From the NCBI GenBank assembly GCA_963422645.2, contig CAXXVO010000007.1, positions 608,001 through 672,000 on the forward strand: a stretch of 64,000 bases of DNA, read 5' to 3'. The first letter of the stretch is position 1. Each line of letters opens with the position of its first letter. The notes under the pieces were generated by a model. That model was not told the DNA's origin. It saw nothing but the letters and a program-made list of their open reading frames with translations, and ran no database searches. Source of the DNA: Alphaproteobacteria bacterium. Lineage in GTDB: Bacteria; Pseudomonadota; Alphaproteobacteria; UBA828. Position numbers and translations under genes: made by a program. Shown here one piece after another: positions 22,311 to 30,200 of the stretch.

Positions 22311-24621
22311 GTTCCTCGACCTCAACGGCGGCACCATCCGCGACACCCAGGGCAATAACTTCGTGCCTGAGACCATCCCGGCGCAGCAATTCACCAAGCA
22401 CCGGGTGCGCGGCGGGTTGCACGCCATGCGGCTCGAGGTGTCCGGCTCGGCGCGCGAGGGCGAGCCCTTCGAGATCCGGGTAGTCCGCAACGGCGGCTTC
22501 GAGGAGGTGGCGGTGGCCGGGGTTGGCGTGGCCGACAGTGCCCTGCCGCACGAAAAGCCTTCGTTCCACTACGCGGTGAACGGGCCCGGCCGTTACCAGT
22601 TCGACTTCGATCACGGGGCGGCGAACGAGCCCGGCGTGCGGGTCTCGACGCGCACCGTGACGCCGATCGGGGACGGCGTTGCCGACGCGTCGCGCACACT
22701 GACGATACGGCTGACCGGGACCGACGCGGGCTTCCATCTGACGCCCCCCCTTGGCGACTATCGGGCCTGGTACCTGGCCGAAGGGCCGCTGGAGGTCACG
22801 GTGCCGGTGATCGACACCGGGCTGTCGCTGGGCGAGGCGGGTTTCCGGGTCCACGGGGCCTCGGTACGCGAGGCACCGGGTGCGAAGCTCGCCTTCAAGG
22901 TCAGCCTGTCGCCCCACAGCGAAGCACCGGTGACGGTGGACTACCGGACCGGAGAAGACCCGCCCAACGGGTCCAAGGCGGTCGCGGGGGAAGACTATGT
23001 GGCCACGAGCGGCACGCTGACCTTCGAGGCCGGCGAGACCCTGAAGACCGTCGAGGTGGAGGTGCTCGCCGACGATCATGACGAGGGCTTCGAGACCATG
23101 CGGCTTTTCCTGTCGAACGCGCAGGGCGCGCGCATCGATGGTGCTTCGGGGCTCGGCGTCATCAAGAATACCGGACCGATCCCGAAGGCTTGGCTGGGGC
23201 GCTTCGGGCGCACGGTGGCCGAGCAGGTGCTAGGCGCGGTCGAGAGCCGGGTGCGGGCAACGCGGCAGCCCGGCATCGAGATGACGCTCGCCGGCCAACG
23301 GGTCGGTGGCCAAGCACCGCAGGAAGCTTCACCCGCGCAACGCGATTCAGCCTGGCAAGAGCACGCCGGCCCCACGTCCCTGGCGTCGCGCGGCGTGACG
23401 CAGGGCGACCTGCTGAGCGGCACCTCCTTCGCAGTCACCGCGGAAACCGGGCAGCACGGGTATGCCACCCTCTGGGGACGCGCCGCCGTTTCCCGCTTCG
23501 ACGGCCGCGAGGGCGACCTCACGCTCGACGGCGAGGTCTCGAGCGCCATGATCGGCGTCGACTGGGCCCGTGAGAACTGGACCGCCGGTCTGATCGTCTC
23601 GCGCAGCGCCGGCGATGGCGGCTACGTCGGCCACAGCAAGGGCCGGGTGGAAGCCACGTTGACGGGCCTCTATCCTTGGGGGCGCCTTGCGCTCTCCGAG
23701 CGGGTGGACGCATGGGGCGCCGCCGGTTACGGCACGGGCGAGCTTTCCGTGACGCCGAAGAAGCCGGGGACGGACGAGGACGGCGCCACGATCCGCACCG
23801 ATCTGGACCTGCGCATGGCGGCGGCCGGGCTACGCGGAAGCCTGCTGGACGGCACCGAGGACGGCCTCACTCTGGCCGCCAAGACCGACGCGCTGATCGT
23901 GCAGACCGCGTCCGACGCGGGCCGCGGGACGGACGGCGGCAACCTGGCTGCAGCCCGGGCCACGGTAACCCGGCTGCGTCTCGGCCTAGAAGGGTCGCAG
24001 CCGATACCGCTCGAGGGCGGTGCGAGCCTGACTCCCTCCGTCGAGATCGGCGTGCGTCATGACGGCGGCGATGCCGAGACCGGGTTCGGCATCAACCTCG
24101 GCGGCGGGTTCGCCTGGTCCGATCCGGAGAGCGGGCTGGTCGCGGAGCTGCGCGGACATGCGCTTCTCACTCACGAAACAGAGGGCTTCCGCGAGCGCGG
24201 CGTTTCCGCCTCGCTCACCTGGGACCCGAAGCCGTCCTCGGCGCTCGGCCCGACGGCGACGCTGACCCAGACGGTCGGCGACCCGGCCTCTGGCGGTGCT
24301 GATGCGTTGCTGGCGCAGGGGGCGCTGACGGGCCTCGCGGCGCAGTCCGGCTCAGAGTTGGACGGTGAGGGCGACCTGCAGCATCGCCGGCTGGAAGCAA
24401 GGTTCGGCTATGGCTTCCCGGCCTGGGGCGGCCGCTTCGCGTCGGTTCCCGAGGTCGGCCTCGGCCTCTCCGACACCGGCCGGGAGTACATCCTGGGCTG
24501 GCGATTGGCGAGCGACGGGCCCGGCGCGCTCCAGCTGTCGACAGAGGCGCGTCGAATCGAGAGCAAGGGCAGCGGCCCGGTGGAGCACCGCATCGGCGCC
24601 CGCCTCTCGGCCCGGTGGTAG
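22311..24621 (+). pseudogene. Calx-beta plus autotransporter beta-barrel, C-terminal part of the interrupted gene
   Basis: VTVDYRT...AGEDYVATSGTLTFEAGET Calx-beta motif; AWLGRFGRTVA...GVRHDGGDAETG barrel; terminal W. Confidence 0.85.
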
Positions 24622-24622
24622 C

Positions 24623-24646
24623 CGGAAGACGGCGCGTCGTCTTCTG
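24623..24646 (+). terminator. hairpin after the autotransporter stop
   Basis: CGGAAGACG...CGTCTTCTG stem. Confidence 0.4.
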
Positions 24647-24842
24647 ACGTGCTCCGGAGAGAGGCGCGGGCTGTGAACGAGGTGAGAGATGCGGGCGAGA
24701 GCGTTTCCGTTTCACACGGAAACACGCACCTTCGGTGCTAAGTAGCTGATTCGATTGCGATGGTCTTCCGTTTCTATTGACACCGGGCGCGGAATTCAAG
24801 CCGATTCCGCACCTCGCTGCAACAGATCGGAGACGCGCAATC

Positions 24843-25096
24843 ATGCCAGCCATCCGCCTCACCCAGCGAAGAGTCGACGCTCTTCGGCCCCGCCCCAAGG
24901 TGCGTGATATCCGGGACGCCGAACTGAAGGGGTACGGCGTCCGGGTCATGCCCTCCGGCGCCAGGCGCTACTTCATCCACAGCCAGCACAGGGGCAAGCG
25001 GGTCTGGAAGATCATAGGCGACGCGGCGACGATCACCGAGCCCGAGGCGCGGGCCAGGGCCAGGTCGATGCTCGCCGCGCTGCGCGACGGCCGGGA
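24843..25096 (+). pseudogene. tyrosine-integrase Arm DNA-binding domain (DUF4102-like) stub
   Basis: LTQRRVDALRP...RDAELKGYGVRVMPSGAR...IG...EARARA; truncated and joined to intron RT sequence. Confidence 0.75.
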
Positions 25097-25548
25097 GACC
25101 TGCACAACCGCGTGCACTCGGGAGCGTACCGGGCGACGCCATCACGGCGGGTGAACATCCCGAAGCCGGATGGCGGCACACGACCGCTCGGCGTCGCGGC
25201 CATCGAGGACAAGATCGTCCAGAAGGCGGTGACGGAGATAATCCTGACGCCGATTTACGATGCGGAGTTGCTGGGGTTCAGCTACGGGTTCCGGCCCGGG
25301 CGGAGGGCGCTCGACGCGCTCGACGCGCTTGCGGTTGGGATCGGAAGGCGCAAGATCGACTGGGTGGTCGATTGTGACATCCGGGCGTTCTTCGACACTG
25401 TGTCCCGAGATTGGCTGGTCCGGTTTCTGGAGCACAAGATCGGGGACAAGCGGATCATCAGGCTGATCATCAAGTGGTTGAACGCCGGCGTCATGGAAGC
25501 TGGCGAGTGGCGGGACGATCTGCGGGGGACGCCGCAAGGCTCGGTGAT
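25097..25548 (+). pseudogene. ltrA: group II intron RT/maturase, N-terminal fragment (RT1-RT4)
   Basis: IPKPDGGTRPLG, EDKIVQ, SYGFRPGR, DIRAFFD and GTPQGSV motifs. Confidence 0.9.
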
Positions 25549-25614
25549 GACGCCCTGAACGCAAAAGGTAACTTCCGCTTCGAACGTCAGATTGTGGAAT
25601 GGCGAGACCGTCCC

Positions 25615-25644
25615 TTGACTGACTTGCGCCGCAAACGGTAATAT
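25615..25644 (+). promoter_or_regulatory. sigma70-like promoter of the recombinase element
   Basis: TTGACT-N18-TAATAT just upstream of the first ORF. Confidence 0.6.
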
Positions 25645-25655
25645 TCTTATGGCAA

Positions 25656-25985
25656 ATGATCCGGTCAACAAGATCCCAGAAGGTCGAGCGGCTCAATGCC
25701 GCCTACACGCTGCTCGCCCAGGGCGCCACGGCGAGCGAAGCCGTGGCACGGCTGTCGCAGCGCTTCGGGCTGTCGCAGCGTCAGTCCTATCGCTACGTCC
25801 AGGACGCGCGCGCCATGGGCCAGCCGGCCGAGCCGACCGAAGAGCTGATCCCGATCACCATCAAGATTCCAGGCACTCTGGCGGAGACCTTGCGAGCCCA
25901 CGCCAGGAGCAGCGGCCACTCCATCGGGGAGATCGTCGCGCGGGCGCTGAGACGCTTTTTATCGGACGCGGATCGGCATGGCTGA
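25656..25985 (+). CDS. small DNA-binding protein (HTH-like N-terminus, ribbon-helix-helix-like C-terminus)
   Basis: FGLSQRQSYRYV and ITIKIPGTLAETLR...SIGEIVARAL; overlaps the next ORF. Confidence 0.7.
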   Translation: MIRSTRSQKVERLNAAYTLLAQGATASEAVARLSQRFGLSQRQSYRYVQDARAMGQPAEPTEELIPITIKIPGTLAETLRAHARSSGHSIGEIVARALRRFLSDADRHG

Positions 25986-26184
25986 ACGTCGCTTGGGCGC
26001 TCGGCCCACGGTTCACCTCGCTTATGCCTTCGATCGTCTGCTCGACGCCAAACTCCACAACGCCTACGCGATCCTGGTGCCCGATCAAACTCACAAAATC
26101 CCGGTCCGAGCGCAGGACATAGGAGACGACCATGAAGATCGCAGCCATTTACGCGCGGGTCTCCGGCGAGCGGCAGAGAGATGA
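25978..26184 (+). CDS. small hypothetical protein, possible directionality factor
   Basis: 68 aa; overlaps both the upstream ORF and the recombinase start; function inferred from position only. Confidence 0.5.
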   Translation: MAERRLGARPTVHLAYAFDRLLDAKLHNAYAILVPDQTHKIPVRAQDIGDDHEDRSHLRAGLRRAAER

Positions 26185-27802
26185 CAACACGATAGCGAGC
26201 CAGACCGAGGCCCTGATCGCCTACGCCGAGGACCACGGTTACAGCGTCGCGCCCGACATGATCATTGAAGATGACGGCTATACCGGCGCCGTTCTCGAAC
26301 GCCCGGGGCTCGAGCGGGTCAGGGATCTCGCCGCGGAAGGGCGCATCGACACGGTGCTGGTCCATGCCCCGGACCGTATGAGCCGGCGCTATGCCTACCA
26401 GGTTCTGATCATCGAGGAGCTGGCCCGTCAGGGCGTCGAGACCGTGTTCTTGAGAGCGCCGTCGATGGAAACCCCGGAAGATCATCTGCTCGTCCAGTTC
26501 CAGGGCATGATTGCGGAATACGAGCGCGCGCAAATCCTGGAGCGTTCCCGGCGCGGCAAGCGACATCGGGCGCGACGCGGCGAAATCGCCGTCCTCGGCG
26601 GCGCGCCCTATGGCTACCGCTACCACAAGAAAACCCCGGACAGCGATGCGTTCTACGAAATCGTCGAGCCGCAGGCGTCGGTGGTTCGCGAGGTTTACCG
26701 CTGCTACACCTGCGATCACATGAGCATCGGCGCGATCACCTGCAGGCTCAATGAGCGCGCGGTACCCACCTCCACCGGGCGCTCGCGCTGGGAACGCTCG
26801 ACGGTGTGGGCGATGCTCCGCAATCCGGCGTACAAGGGGAAAGCCTGTTTCGGCAAGACCCGCCAGATGCCGCGTAAATGTGTGACACGTCCTCTGCGCC
26901 TGCGCCGCGGCGTGGCCAGCGGCACGACCGGCGGTCACGAAAAACCGCGTGAGGAGTGGATCGAGATCCCGGTGCCGGCGATCGTCAGCGAAGAGACCTT
27001 CGCCCTGGCCGAAGAGCGGCTGGAGATGAACAAGATCCACGCGCCGCGTCGCACGAAGACGCCCAGCGTGCTCCAGGGACTGGTCTCGTGCGGCAAATGC
27101 GGCTACGCGCTGTCTCGCACATCGGCCCAGACGAGTGCCCGCAAGATCTCCTATTATCGCTGCCTGGGTTCTGACTCTTGGCGCCATCTCAACGGACCGG
27201 TGTGCGACAGTCGGCCGGTGCGCCAGGACTTGCTCGATGACGTCGTCTGGGGCGAAGTGGTCCGCCTGCTCGAGGATCCAGCACTGATCGGCGCCGAGAT
27301 CGACCGGCGACTACAGGCGGCCCGCGCTTCCGATCCAAACCAGCAGCGCGAGAACGACCTGCGGCACCGTCTGATCCGGGTCCGAAAAAGCATCGACCGC
27401 CTGGTCAACGCCTATCAGGAGGAGTTGATTACAATCGATGAACTGCGCGACAGAACGTCCGAGCTCCGTCGTCAGGATCAGGCTCTGAATCGCGAACTGC
27501 AATCCGCCGTCGATCGGGCGAAGGATCGCGAGACCTATCTCCGGCTCGCCGAGACGCTGACCGGCTTTCTGGCGCGGCTGCACTCGTCCGCCGAAACCCT
27601 GGACATCGCCGAACGGCAGCGCATCGTCCGGCTCATCGTGAAGGAGGTGTTGGTCACCGAGGACAAAATCACCATTCGCCATTCAATCCCAATCTCGGGA
27701 TCGCCAGGCGGCGGTCCAGACCCGTCGAAACCCGGCAACCACAGCACCGAAGGCGAAGGTTGCCTTTTGCGTTCAGGGCGTCATTTCACCGATCCTGGCT
27801 AA
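26132..27802 (+). CDS. large serine recombinase (resolvase, recombinase, Zn ribbon and coiled-coil domains)
   Basis: YARVS, DDGYTG, DRMSR, PYGY and CGKCG...YYRC motifs; RBS AGGAG; stop lies outside the element. Confidence 0.95.
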   Translation: MKIAAIYARVSGERQRDDNTIASQTEALIAYAEDHGYSVAPDMIIEDDGYTGAVLERPGLERVRDLAAEGRIDTVLVHAPDRMSRRYAYQVLIIEELARQGVETVFLRAPSMETPEDHLLVQFQGMIAEYERAQILERSRRGKRHRARRGEIAVLGGAPYGYRYHKKTPDSDAFYEIVEPQASVVREVYRCYTCDHMSIGAITCRLNERAVPTSTGRSRWERSTVWAMLRNPAYKGKACFGKTRQMPRKCVTRPLRLRRGVASGTTGGHEKPREEWIEIPVPAIVSEETFALAEERLEMNKIHAPRRTKTPSVLQGLVSCGKCGYALSRTSAQTSARKISYYRCLGSDSWRHLNGPVCDSRPVRQDLLDDVVWGEVVRLLEDPALIGAEIDRRLQAARASDPNQQRENDLRHRLIRVRKSIDRLVNAYQEELITIDELRDRTSELRRQDQALNRELQSAVDRAKDRETYLRLAETLTGFLARLHSSAETLDIAERQRIVRLIVKEVLVTEDKITIRHSIPISGSPGGGPDPSKPGNHSTEGEGCLLRSGRHFTDPG

Positions 27803-28487
27803 CATCTACCTGCACTATGTCCTTGATCTCTGGTTCCAGCGGAAGTGGCGCAACCACGAGGTCGGAGGCGACACGATTATCGTGCGCTACGCCGACGACT
27901 TCGTGGTGGGCTTCCAGCACAAGCGGGATGCGGAGCGTTTTCTGAACGCCATGAAGGAGCGGTTCGGAGGTTTCGGACTGGACCTGCACCCCGACAAGAC
28001 CCGGCTCATCGAGTTCGGGCGGTTTGCCAGTGAGCGCCGCCGGGAACGAGGACAGGGTAAGCCGGAGGCCTTCGACTTTCTGGGCTTCACGCACTACTGC
28101 GCGGAGACCGGACAGGGACGGTTCCAGCTGGGGCGCAAGCCGGAGGCGAAGCGGATGGCACGCACTCTGAAACGGCTCAAGGAGGCGCTACGCAGGCGGA
28201 TGCATCACAAAGCTGTGGTCACGGCAAAATGGCTGGGAAAGGTGGTCGACGGATGGCTGAACTATTACGCCGTTCCAACCAGCTTCCTATCTCTAAGCCG
28301 ATTTGCCGATCGCCTGACGCGGCTGTGGCTGCGATGCTTGCGCCGCAGATCGCAGAAGGACCGCTTCTCATTGGCCAGCCTCATGGCCCTCAGAGGGGCA
28401 CACTGGCCCAAGCTCGAAATCCGACACCCGTGGCCGAGCCAACGACTCGCCGTCAGCACAACCCAAGGGAGGAGCCGGATGCCTTAG
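27785..28487 (+). pseudogene. ltrA: group II intron RT/maturase, C-terminal fragment (YADD, domain X, no endonuclease)
   Basis: SPILANIYLH, RYADDF, LHPDKT, FDFLGF and GWLNYY motifs. Confidence 0.9.
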
Positions 28488-28543
28488 CGGGTATGTCCGG
28501 ATCCGTGCGGGGGGTCCCCAGCAATGGGGATCCCTACCGCGAT
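28472..28543 (+). ncRNA. group II intron domains V and VI
   Basis: GAGCCGGATG...TGTCCGGATC DV with AGC triad; DVI stem ending CCCTACCGCGAT. Confidence 0.85.
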
Positions 28544-28751
28544 CAACAGCCGGCGGCCGGCCGCGGCCATCCTTCAAGTGACAGCGCTGGCAGGCGCGCG
28601 CGTTGAAGAGGGGTCCGAGACCGTCCGACGACGTGGTCGAGCTCGGCGCCGAGACCCAGATCTTCCTGAAGATCCCGTTGCCGACCCTGAAGTCGCGTTC
28701 GCGCTTGAAAGGCATGTTGGCGGAGGGATGCGAGAACGCGTTCCGGTTCAC
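28544..28751 (-). pseudogene. di-heme oxidoreductase (DHOR/DUF1111-like) N-terminal fragment
   Basis: AFSHPSAN...GNGIFRKIWV...DGLGPLFNARACQRCHLKDGRG; cut at the intron 3' end. Confidence 0.8.
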
Positions 28752-29586
28752 CGCGACGTCCGAGCGCGACGTGCTCTCACACTATGCGGATCTGGCGCAC
28801 GCCGTGTACGAGGATTCGCTGATCGCAGCCCGCGATCTACAAGGCGCGGTGAACCGGTTCATCGCCGACCCGATCGAGGCAAATATGTCGGCGGCGCGGG
28901 ATACCTGGCGGGCGGCGCGCGTCCCCTACCAGCAGAGCGAGGTCTACCGCTTCGGCAACGCCGTCGCCGACGACTGGGAAGGCAAGGTGAACGCCTGGCC
29001 GCTCGACGAAGGCCTCATCGACTACGTGGCGGCGAGCTACGGCGCGGAGTCGGAGGAGAATCCCGGCTATCGCGCCAACATCGTCGCCAGCCCGAGCTTC
29101 ACCTTCTCGGGCGAATTGATCGACGCGGGGAGCATCACCAAGGAGCTGCTCGCGGACACGTTGCATGAGCTTGGCGGCGTCGAGGCCAACGTGGCGACCG
29201 GCTACCATGCCGTCGAGTTTCTGCTCTGGGGCCAGGACCTGAACGGCACCTGCACCGGCGCGGGTGCGAGGCCTGCCAGCGACTTCGATCCGGCCAACTG
29301 CTCATGGGGCAACTGCGAGCGCCGCGCCGCCTACCTGCAGACGGCCACCGATCTGCTGATCGATGACCTCGAGTGGATGACCGCCCAGTGGGCACCGGGC
29401 GGCGAGGCCTACGACTAGCAAATCGGCGAGGGGAATGCGGCAGGCAACGCGAGGGTGCAGGCCGCGATCGATGCGCTGACCGCGCAGACGAGCGCGATCG
29501 AGGGCGCGGTCGCGGCGCTCAACCTCGCTTTGATCGACTTCGAGGGCTCGGACAGCCTCGACGACCCCGAGGCCGTCTTCGAGTAA
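28752..29586 (+). pseudogene. imelysin (IrpA-like) pseudogene
   Basis: VNAWPLDEGLIDYV, TGYHAVEFLLWGQD and EGSDSLDDPEAVF; no signal peptide; in-frame TAG at 29416-29418; probable internal deletion. Confidence 0.85.
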
Positions 29587-29748
29587 GCGCCTTCCCGGCG
29601 GTCTGCCGCGCCAAACGACGCAGCAGACCGGGGCCGCCCCGCTCGACCCCCCGCGGGGCGGCCCTCGAGCCGGCGCATTGGCCGGCGCCGGGGTGCGCGC
29701 ATCTTGGTTCGGTAGCGACCCACCCTCACCAGCACGGAGAGGCGAGCC

Positions 29749-30200
29749 ATGTGCGAACCTTGCGTCGTTCCGCCCAAGCAGAGCGGGAGCCAGCGCCACA
29801 AGCTGTGGGAGATCCGGCCGGACCTGCGTTGCACCATTATCGGCACCTGCCTCAGCTATGCCGATCTGCTCAAGATCGGCCGCAAGGCCGGCTTCGCGCC
29901 GAGCGAAACGGCCACCGAATACGAGATGCATAACTATTTCGTGCACCGCGCCGAGGAGCCGGACCGGCTCGCCCAGCTGATGCACAAGGCGCTGGACGCC
30001 AAGTACCGGGCCGGCATTCACGCCTGCCAGCAGGCGCAGTGCGTGGCAGATCTGGAGGAATTCTGGTCGGACGCTCTCGCCAAGGGCGATATCCCCGGGC
30101 CTACTGGGCGTTGATGACGCACCCCCTGACCTCGGAAGCGCTGCTGGTCCGCGCCTTCTGCCACACGGATGCGCTCTCGCACTTTATCGCTCACGGCAGC
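29749..30200 (+). pseudogene. DUF2325-type protein N-terminal fragment, frameshifted
   Basis: KLWEI...CTIIGTCLS...GDIPG then (A)YWALMTHP in another frame at about 30100; truncated; end approximate. Confidence 0.6.

Follow-up and report, generated by a model that had tools for sequence, protein, structure and literature searches.

The DNA analysed here, called the window throughout, is a stretch of 64,000 nucleotides from an alphaproteobacterium of the lineage UBA828 (GenBank assembly GCA_963422645.2, contig CAXXVO010000007.1, positions 608,001 to 672,000 of the forward strand), and at positions 25547-27784 it holds a 2238-bp unit, called the element below, that lies inside the reverse transcriptase (RT) gene of a group II intron and encodes a large serine recombinase (LSR). 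A reading made earlier from the letters of the window (the sequence-only reading) had proposed that this unit is a small parasite of a retroelement that uses a conserved stretch of the RT gene as its attachment site. The element and the two RT halves on either side of it are made up of the following features, in coordinates of the window.

25112 to 25546, forward strand: left RT half, 5'-truncated, ending ..GTPQGSV; RVT_1 profile positions 1-124
25547 to 25578, forward strand: left terminal inverted repeat, with core AT (25547-48), 10-nt tip GACGCCCTGA and conserved inner motif ACGCAAAAGGTAAC
25615 to 25644, forward strand: promoter-like site TTGACT-18-TAATAT, sigma-70-like, upstream of ORF1 (promoter scan)
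25630 to 25641: third copy of the end motif, CGCAAACGGTAA (motif CGCAAANGGTAA), overlapping the -10 region of the promoter (motif search)
25656 to 25985, forward strand: ORF1, 109 aa, with an N-terminal helix-turn-helix-like segment (..FGLSRRQAYRYL..) and a C-terminal ribbon-helix-helix (RHH)
25978 to 26184, forward strand: ORF2, 68 aa (about 90-100 aa in most relatives)
26132 to 27802, forward strand: LSR, 556 aa, Resolvase, Recombinase and Zn_ribbon_recom domains
27753 to 27784, reverse strand: right terminal inverted repeat, with core AT (27783-84)
27785 to 28487, forward strand: right RT half ((I)SPILANIYLH..RYADD..) and maturase domain; RVT_1 126-204, GIIM E 1.3e-4

When the sequence was read again and searched for repeats, the 2238-bp unit with inverted ends and an AT at each junction was found as it had been described, at 25547-48 and 27783-84. 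The outermost 22 nt of the inverted repeats, AT counted in, match perfectly, and the imperfect repeat comes to 32 nt with 91% complementarity (25547-25578 and 27753-27784). The left and right repeats are read here as two putative attP arms, and the inner motif ACGCAAAAGGTAAC is conserved, with a spacing of 10 nt to the tip, in those loci whose ends were located. The end motif CGCAAANGGTAA occurs 3 times in the 64-kb window as against 0.33 expected, and the promoter scan of the region found 2 sites as against 0.5 expected. A block that reads GCAAA.GGTAATAT is at least 90% conserved in 58 aligned left ends of relatives. Because the third copy of the end motif at the -10 region is conserved family-wide, autoregulation is suggested, with this copy as a candidate operator for whichever protein binds the ends, and the ORF1 product is predicted to be the repressor that acts there.

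ORF1 has a weak RHH_1 match in the profile search (E 6e-4, barely under the cut-off), its homologues are labelled CopG-family RHH in RefSeq, and tblastn found it in 78 of 80 loci; its product is a predicted regulator or accessory DNA-binding protein. ORF2 was likewise found in 78 of 80 loci; its conserved core is the first 40 or so residues (MAERR..YxFDRLLxxKLxQVYxILVP in the alignment) and it has no match in Pfam, NCBIfam or PHROG. We take ORF2 to be coding because its codon-position entropy is periodic outside the overlap with the LSR gene, where the third position has 1.50 as against 0.92 and 0.93 for the other two, and as a guess it might be a recombination directionality factor. The third protein is a large serine recombinase by its domain order, catalytic residues and zinc-ribbon cysteines. 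Its catalytic domain matches PF00239 Resolvase at residues 4-151 (7.5e-32), followed by PF07508 Recombinase (3.4e-20) and PF13408 Zn_ribbon_recom (4.4e-10), and in 30 sequences R9, S11, D81, R82, S84, R85, C320, C344 and C358 are invariant while the fourth zinc-ribbon cysteine, C323, is at least 90% conserved. The LSR profile aligns with SPbeta SprA/YokA over residues 57-509, a range that spans the region in which LSRs have a coiled-coil motif inserted in the zinc ribbon, and it matches the PHROG 95 integrase at 1e-97. The promoter, the two small ORFs and the LSR do lie inside the element as the sequence-only reading had it, except that the stop codon of the LSR falls 18 nt outside, the ORF crossing the right inverted repeat into the flank. 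In most relatives, too, the LSR frame has no stop inside the element and runs to 523-635 aa depending on the flank (L012-L090; the shortest includes contig-truncated ones). Since the frame stays open through the right inverted repeat, the C-terminal tail varies by insertion site and would change again in a circle. With a length under about 2.5 kb, three genes, no cargo, inverted ends and several copies per genome, the element has what characterises an insertion sequence.

When the element is removed and one AT is kept, the RT frame reads GTPQGSV-I-SPILANIYLH, as the sequence-only reading had it. In the interrupted RVT_1/GIIM gene PQGSV lies on one side of the element and ISPILAN on the other; the RVT_1 126-204 and GIIM match in the right flank spans 27786-28484. 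For the relatives one genome per prokaryotic species was scanned, which gave at least 561 candidate stretches, at least 519 of them encoding a relative, and the flank analyses use the best 80 of these at least 519 loci, with 61-88% LSR identity, which is not a random sample. Hosts of these 80 belong to the Alpha- and Gammaproteobacteria, Acidobacteriota, Binatia, Gemmatimonadota and others, and an example from the Actinomycetota came from a plasmid search. The unit is nearly always 2216-2303 bp long where both ends could be located. Among the 140 flanks long enough to be read, the RT halves of the window match 113 by tblastn, and 104 of the 113 matches begin or stop exactly at the junction; this comparison of homologue flanks is the one that the sequence-only reading had proposed. 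A junction motif, [PGSA]QGxx directly before or x[SA]PxxxN directly after the junction, is present in 126 of the 140 flanks as compared to 11 of 8255 random positions (0.13%) of the same loci, and 131 flanks have either the motif or the tblastn match. Both RT halves are present in 37 loci (20 in forward and 17 in reverse orientation), and with the window included all 38 two-sided sites (21 forward, 17 reverse) have the junction at one and the same nucleotide position of a target of about 40 bp that is common to all of them. Between PQGxx and SP there is an Ile, Val, Ala or Leu codon, and its first two bases are the crossover dinucleotide. A few loci carry two left halves or two right halves, which are expected from recombination between copies inserted in opposite orientation. 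The claim that a conserved, multicopy stretch of the RT gene is the attachment site is therefore borne out by the motif at the junctions and by the single position of the two-sided sites.

The host RTs of the family are those of real group II introns. Rfam group II models (D1D4-2, -4, -6, -7 and/or D5-D6) matched in 12 of the 15 loci searched, and 44 of 61 right halves have an ORF of at least 150 aa, with RVT_1 in all 44 and GIIM in 34 of them. On plasmid pUSDA76 of Bradyrhizobium elkanii USDA 76 an IS66 element is broken by an intron whose RT holds RHH and recombinase genes, and on pRZP1 of Rhodococcus sp. ZPP an LSR with 49% identity stands in the same layout at the site GTPQGAP | VSPVLANLFL. 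For LSRs of about 40% identity (Nitrobacter hamburgensis plasmid 3, P. putida pWW53) the record annotation has no adjoining RT genes, and at the Nitrobacter locus a terminal inverted repeat of the element's kind was not found. From the RT context at 49% and the other contexts at about 40% it follows that the RT-targeting clade ends between 40% and 49% identity. A further RT insertion, from an environmental sample, is seen in a metatranscriptome contig of run X17, which has a loose end at window position 27783, a right end 93-99% similar to that of the element and then the reverse complement of ..GTPQGGI; contigs from this RNA library cover parts of the element, which does not by itself show transcription.

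It could be argued that this association with RT genes is an artefact of the sample or chance, and that a relaxed LSR simply met RT genes because they are common in regions rich in insertion sequences. Off-target copies do exist, as described below, and the 80 loci are the best-scoring of at least 519 and not random. However, the junction falls at a single nucleotide in 38 of 38 two-sided sites, the motif is found in 90% of flanks and in 0.13% of random positions, the same site is used on the Rhodococcus plasmid at 49% LSR identity, and an IS66 element that is also a host in the window's own genome is occupied in 1 of its 105 copies. Chance is thus almost certainly not what placed the element in RT genes.

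Empty sites, for which a search had been proposed, were found beside occupied ones in genome G041, at locus L034 and in contigs of run X7. The single chromosome of G041 has seven intact RT genes of two intron families, which read ..GTG-AT-CTCACC.. or ..GTG-AT-CAGCCC.., and ten verified copies of the element. Eight of the ten lie in introns of these two families, some in one orientation and some in the other, and have AT at each junction; the other two are chimeric, their flanks belonging to different RTs, and in one of these the junctions read AT/GT. Copies in this genome (L014-L018, L114-L119) are clustered, with RT half-fragments between them and with flanks from different RT genes, for example F3-left with F1-right (above all at L014_R, L016_L and L017_R), which indicates that copies have recombined with each other and so rearranged the region. 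In L117, the eleventh split RT, there is a 3.9-kb gap. At L034 an intact empty twin lies directly upstream (L034:1-1224) of the occupied copy (L034:2956-6420), the flanks being 100% identical over 461 nt and 99.87% identical over 762 nt. In run X7, which is from another study, contigs join window position 25546 to 27783 with two letters shared, which is the window's own empty allele and the join that the sequence-only reading obtained by taking out the element and keeping one AT; a second empty allele in this run has GC in place of AT. This join and the five near-identical copies in the window's own genome show that the unit did not arise as a chance repeat. When RVT_1 profile matches were tallied in five genomes chosen as carriers, and hence not as a population estimate, 30 of 92 matches were full-length, 25 were left halves ending at 120-132 and 27 were right halves starting at 100-124; the remainder were 4 partial matches spanning the site and 6 other fragments. 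In G041 there were 8 full-length matches as compared to 11 left and 11 right halves, and in G043 there were 0 full-length matches with 3 left and 3 right halves.

The explanation that we hold very likely is that the unit is an autonomous mobile element of insertion-sequence size that is moved by its LSR, that its attB is the block of the RT gene that encodes PQG..SP, and that insertion is conservative with a 2-bp core. The element would excise as a circle in which the two inverted ends are joined as a symmetric attP, and the LSR would recombine this attP with attB, the DNA encoding G-T-P-Q-G-x-x / (I/V)-S-P-x-L-x-N of the group II intron RT. Strand exchange would take place at a 2-bp core made up of the first two bases of the Ile/Val codon, nothing being duplicated or lost and one core dinucleotide being left at each junction, and the insertion would split the intron RT/maturase. 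Joined element ends would give a perfect palindrome around the core, which is attP-like, and when tip and target are compared by eye, reading away from the core, 6-7 nt at the inner end of the tip (CACNCC.) agree with the inner portion of each target half-site. This resemblance of the tip to the target half-sites fits one protein dimer binding both attP and attB; which protein binds which motif is inferred, as is the circular intermediate. Given symmetric arms and a usual core, AT, that is a palindrome, insertion is expected in either orientation, and both were observed.

There are, however, several observations that weigh against this explanation. The circle junction was not seen among assembled contigs, which drop rare forms, so that nothing follows from this for either side. 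Of the 140 flanks, 9 have neither the motif nor a tblastn match. In 14 of the 38 sites one junction has another dinucleotide than its partner, one of the two usually being AT, and some of these sites, in which the flanks come from different RTs, may be recombinants between copies; the occupied copy at L034 reads GT/GT while its empty twin has AT, which a simple segregation model does not predict. Further points come from the window's own genome (G000, a 5.9-Mb assembly in 23 contigs), which has five copies of the element, A to E, about 100% identical. Copy A is the one in the window and the only one with RT on both sides. Copy B interrupts a gene for a Xan_ur_permease protein, copy C has a Na_Pi_cotrans gene fragment on one side and on the other, in reverse complement, a second left half of an RT that ends ..TPQGSV, copy D has an Amidase gene to its left and an unrelated right flank at a site unlike the RT consensus (genome fraction 0.09-0.2 by the weight matrix described below), and copy E interrupts an IS66 transposase right where its DDE domain ends. 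Homologues at unrelated sites with no enrichment for RT genes were what the sequence-only reading had said would speak against it; enrichment is there (126 of 140 flanks vs 11 of 8255 random positions), and copies B, D and E and one flank of C are nevertheless off target. The RT target is therefore preferred and not exclusive, three or four of the five copies in this genome being in other genes.

A tblastn search with both RT halves found no intact RT in this genome; it found the window copy, the half beside copy C and one small fragment. We built a weight matrix from 37 RT sites and asked whether the off-target sites mimic the RT site. The rejoined site of the window scores 50.8 in this matrix and nothing else in the genome scores above 10.6. 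Sites B and E, taken in one orientation, rank within the best 1e-4 of all positions of the genome, and their strand that resembles the left RT half has ..QGA(V/E) x .. in it. With no RT target left, the element has entered look-alike sites at B and E. Copy D is of another kind. Its left flank comes from an amidase site that reads CGCG-CT-GACGCTCCCCTGCGG in five orthologues (L127-L131; G000 C10:50615-50914), that natively has CT-GACGC, seven bases in common with the element end, and that holds an inverted PQG-like CCGCAGGGG; the downstream part of the amidase region is at the end of contig C23. Either the locus of copy D is rearranged or the assembly is broken there, and the amidase site may be the source of the CT core in copies B, D and E.

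Three of the copies, C, D and E, exceed the others in length, and cargo was considered as the reason; the extra DNA turned out to be a 1765-bp IS110-family element in tandem, nested between ORF2 and the LSR start in two copies in C, three in D and one in E. The target that it uses lies in the window copy as follows, where it is empty.

26090 to 26098, forward strand: IS110 target CTCACAAAA, occupied in copies C, D and E

This IS110-family element encodes a 426-aa protein with DEDD_Tnp_IS110 and Transposase_20 domains and is present in the genome, which is extremely rich in insertion sequences, in 48 full-length copies that are 100% identical and in one interrupted copy (for example C10:44761-50062, C8:727931-731464, C19:33969-35733 and C11:48116-56954). 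It is always found after ..ACAAAA genome-wide, and its 3' end (..CACGGCAAA) re-creates its own target, which leads to head-to-tail arrays of up to five. Where nested, it comes between the ORF1 promoter and the gene of the recombinase.

The IS66 element in which copy E is found allows the conservative insertion at a 2-bp core to be examined directly, since 104 empty copies of it reading ..GAAG-TT-CTCGG (e.g. C22:9117/9114 and C18:59469/59472) can be compared with the single occupied one (1 of 105), which reads ..GAAG-CT-[element]-TT-CTCGG. There is no duplication, and the CT/TT junctions as against the empty TT show that the element brought CT and the target kept TT. A staggered 2-nt cut, a tolerated mismatch of one base and a heteroduplex resolved by replication would give such junctions, and tolerance of one mismatch in the core is how we would account for them. 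Copy B has CT and CC in element orientation. Among its orthologues, the one whose local context is the same carries what corresponds to CC, but four others carry what corresponds to CT; copy B therefore only probably supports insertion at a mismatched core. Over the family the core is not fixed as AT and follows the Ile/Val/Ala/Leu codon of the RT. Mismatch tolerance, if true, contradicts the accepted rule for large serine integrases and explains how Ile, Val, Ala and Leu codons are all served by one element.

The question then arises how the copies spread. They could have spread mainly by hitchhiking, the composite intron being spliced and retrohomed with RT supplied in trans, so that most copies of the element are copies of the composite. 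An intact RT of the same intron is found beside occupied ones in 4 of 5 host genomes and, specifically, in G041 and at L034, and supply in trans would thus be available; in G041 the copies L114 and L115 share a 2-bp length variant of the element as well as intron family and orientation, which is compatible with either route. But in G041 six genomic copies of an identical element are in two intron families and in both orientations, which a composite cannot yield, and the window's own genome has five copies with no intact RT, three or four of them outside RT genes. Empty and occupied flanks in G041 differ by 0-1 single-nucleotide polymorphisms, too few to discriminate hitchhiking. The identical copies in two families and both orientations indicate repeated insertion by the recombinase as the main route, and we consider it unlikely that hitchhiking was.

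Since so many RT genes are split in the carriers, it might be asked whether the host keeps the element as a domesticated anti-retroelement system, a defence that disables group II introns. In favour of this are the large share of split RTs in the five carrier genomes (25-27 halves vs 30 full), the 0 of 3 intact RTs in G043 and the lack of any intact one in the window's own genome. Against it, the copies are multiple, near-identical and have inverted ends, a fixed chromosomal locus was not found, and the insertions in permease, amidase and other host genes are costs. In addition, the distribution in the genus is patchy, with one genome among 20 others of the same genus having a truncated copy of 94% identity and one having an LSR of 43% identity. 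We regard a defensive function as very unlikely. The patchy spread in the genus instead makes it probable that the element was acquired horizontally, and the five near-identical copies together with the loose ends in contigs of several runs indicate recent activity.

A different origin would be by decay, from a prophage, an island or some other larger integrative element that had used its LSR to integrate into an RT gene; the unit would then be a remnant and not an autonomous insertion sequence. The LSR does match the phage integrase PHROG 95, and the nearest NCBIfam models are those of cassette-chromosome recombinases, although far below their cut-offs. Against decay, the length of the unit is nearly always 2216-2303 bp, and a longer, cargo-bearing form was not seen among the loci with both ends located, the sole larger versions in the window's own genome being due to the nested IS110. 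Each of the two small ORFs was found in 78 of the 80 loci, the Rhodococcus plasmid shows the same layout, and the copy number reaches at least 10 per genome with copies that are mostly identical. A remnant of this kind is highly improbable.

The element, taken as an autonomous insertion sequence moved by its LSR, can be compared with four kinds of known systems. With the large serine integrases of phages and islands (phiC31, Bxb1, TP901-1, A118, SPbeta SprA and the SCCmec CcrA/B/C) it shares the order of catalytic, recombinase and zinc-ribbon domains, imperfectly palindromic att sites, a 2-bp core, conservative exchange and an attB that is often in a conserved gene. Unlike these integrases it is a 2.2-kb element without cargo whose attP arms are its own terminal inverted repeats, its attB is a motif of another mobile element that is present in many copies per genome, the element itself reaches at least 10 copies per genome, its core varies with the target codon, and it has one mismatched-core insertion (copy E). 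A mismatched core normally blocks recombination by phiC31 and Bxb1. No NCBIfam equivalog was reached, CcrB scoring 120 bits against a cut-off of 900.

A second kind is that of the serine 'transposases' TnpX/TndX of Tn4451 and Tn5397, in which the core is GA. The passages of Durrant et al. on these proteins and on a multi-targeting LSR clade (bioRxiv 10.1101/2021.11.05.467528) describe transposition via a circle into many sites, and it is in an LSR that acts as a transposase that our element is like them. Those elements have cargo, short degenerate targets and a fixed core, which is TT in one example of that paper, and most of them contain DUF4368. The LSR of the element, unlike these, has no DUF4368 among its Pfam matches and uses a long and specific RT-encoded target. 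Membership in the TndX/TnpX-like multi-targeting clade is ruled out by this lack of DUF4368 and by the target of about 40 bp common to 38 of 38 sites.

IS607 is likewise an insertion sequence moved by a serine recombinase without target-site duplication. Many IS607-family members also carry tnpB. IS607, according to PMC6188088, lacks terminal inverted repeats, and in its protein the domain that binds DNA precedes the catalytic one. The element, unlike IS607, has an N-terminal catalytic domain, large C-terminal domains and inverted ends of 22-32 bp, and as a candidate for the IS607 family it was rejected by the score of NF033518 (34.7 bits vs a cut-off of 110), by the presence of inverted ends and by the 556-aa size of the protein. 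Finally, there are mobile elements that target mobile elements: the Tn5053/Tn402 'res hunters', IS1111/IS110 in repeats, group II introns in insertion sequences and terminators, and twintrons. As with these, the landing site of the element is conserved, multicopy and dispensable. We know of no described serine recombinase whose attB is a group II intron RT-coding sequence. A literature search over open-access and bioRxiv full text, with figures, supplements and ISfinder outside its scope, did not turn up any account of LSR insertion sequences with the RT genes of introns as their target, and the RefSeq names are merely 'recombinase family protein' and 'CopG family'.

As regards the RT that the window copy interrupts, two further features lie at its ends, both outside the element.

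24843 to 25151, forward strand: N-terminal arm-binding fragment of a tyrosine integrase, adjoining the truncated RT; Arm-DNA-bind_3, E 1.7e-8
28469 to 28506, forward strand: weak likeness to domain V where the RT ORF ends; 19.3 bits and E 0.084 with the group II D5 model, short of its gathering score

The window RT begins at RVT_1 position 1 directly after the integrase arm-binding fragment, its 5' part having been replaced, and it is therefore a 5'-truncated intron remnant already apart from the insertion of the element. It has the RVT_1 and GIIM domains of a group II intron RT and lacks the D1-D4 / D5-D6 ribozyme parts; the Rfam search gave no other ribozyme match at E<=1 within 23500-30000, and the D5-like stretch at 28469-28506 may be the last trace of the intron ribozyme. 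The region of the window around 24843-25151 is a patchwork of mobile-element remnants. The sequence-only reading had called the element a parasite of a retroelement; for the family this stands, since the hosts are group II introns (12 of 15 loci in Rfam), while for the window copy 'retroelement' holds solely as a remnant, because Rfam detects no intron ribozyme there.

The family is thus one of minimal LSR insertion sequences with attB in the intron RT, widespread and active, and it seems to be undescribed. In our judgement it is probably a phylum-spanning family of serine-recombinase insertion sequences that lives as a hyperparasite with the PQG..SP block of the RT as attB and disables a large part of a genome's introns, about half of the RVT_1 matches in the five carrier genomes being split at the element site, and its recombinase appears to tolerate mismatches, leaving its own dinucleotide at one junction and that of the target at the other. 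To our knowledge IS607 is the known family of serine-recombinase insertion sequences, and the present one joins it with a natural target that is long and known precisely. For genome engineering it offers dozens of natural attP/attB pairs with variation on both sides and, it may be, an LSR that accepts non-identical cores. For annotation, the order 'RT domain / CopG RHH / recombinase family / RT or GIIM', as on pUSDA76 and pRZP1, can be read as one nested element. The niche of the element is the catalytic gene of another mobile element, and this bears on why many genomic intron RTs are annotated as fragments and on what limits the spread of group II introns in bacteria.

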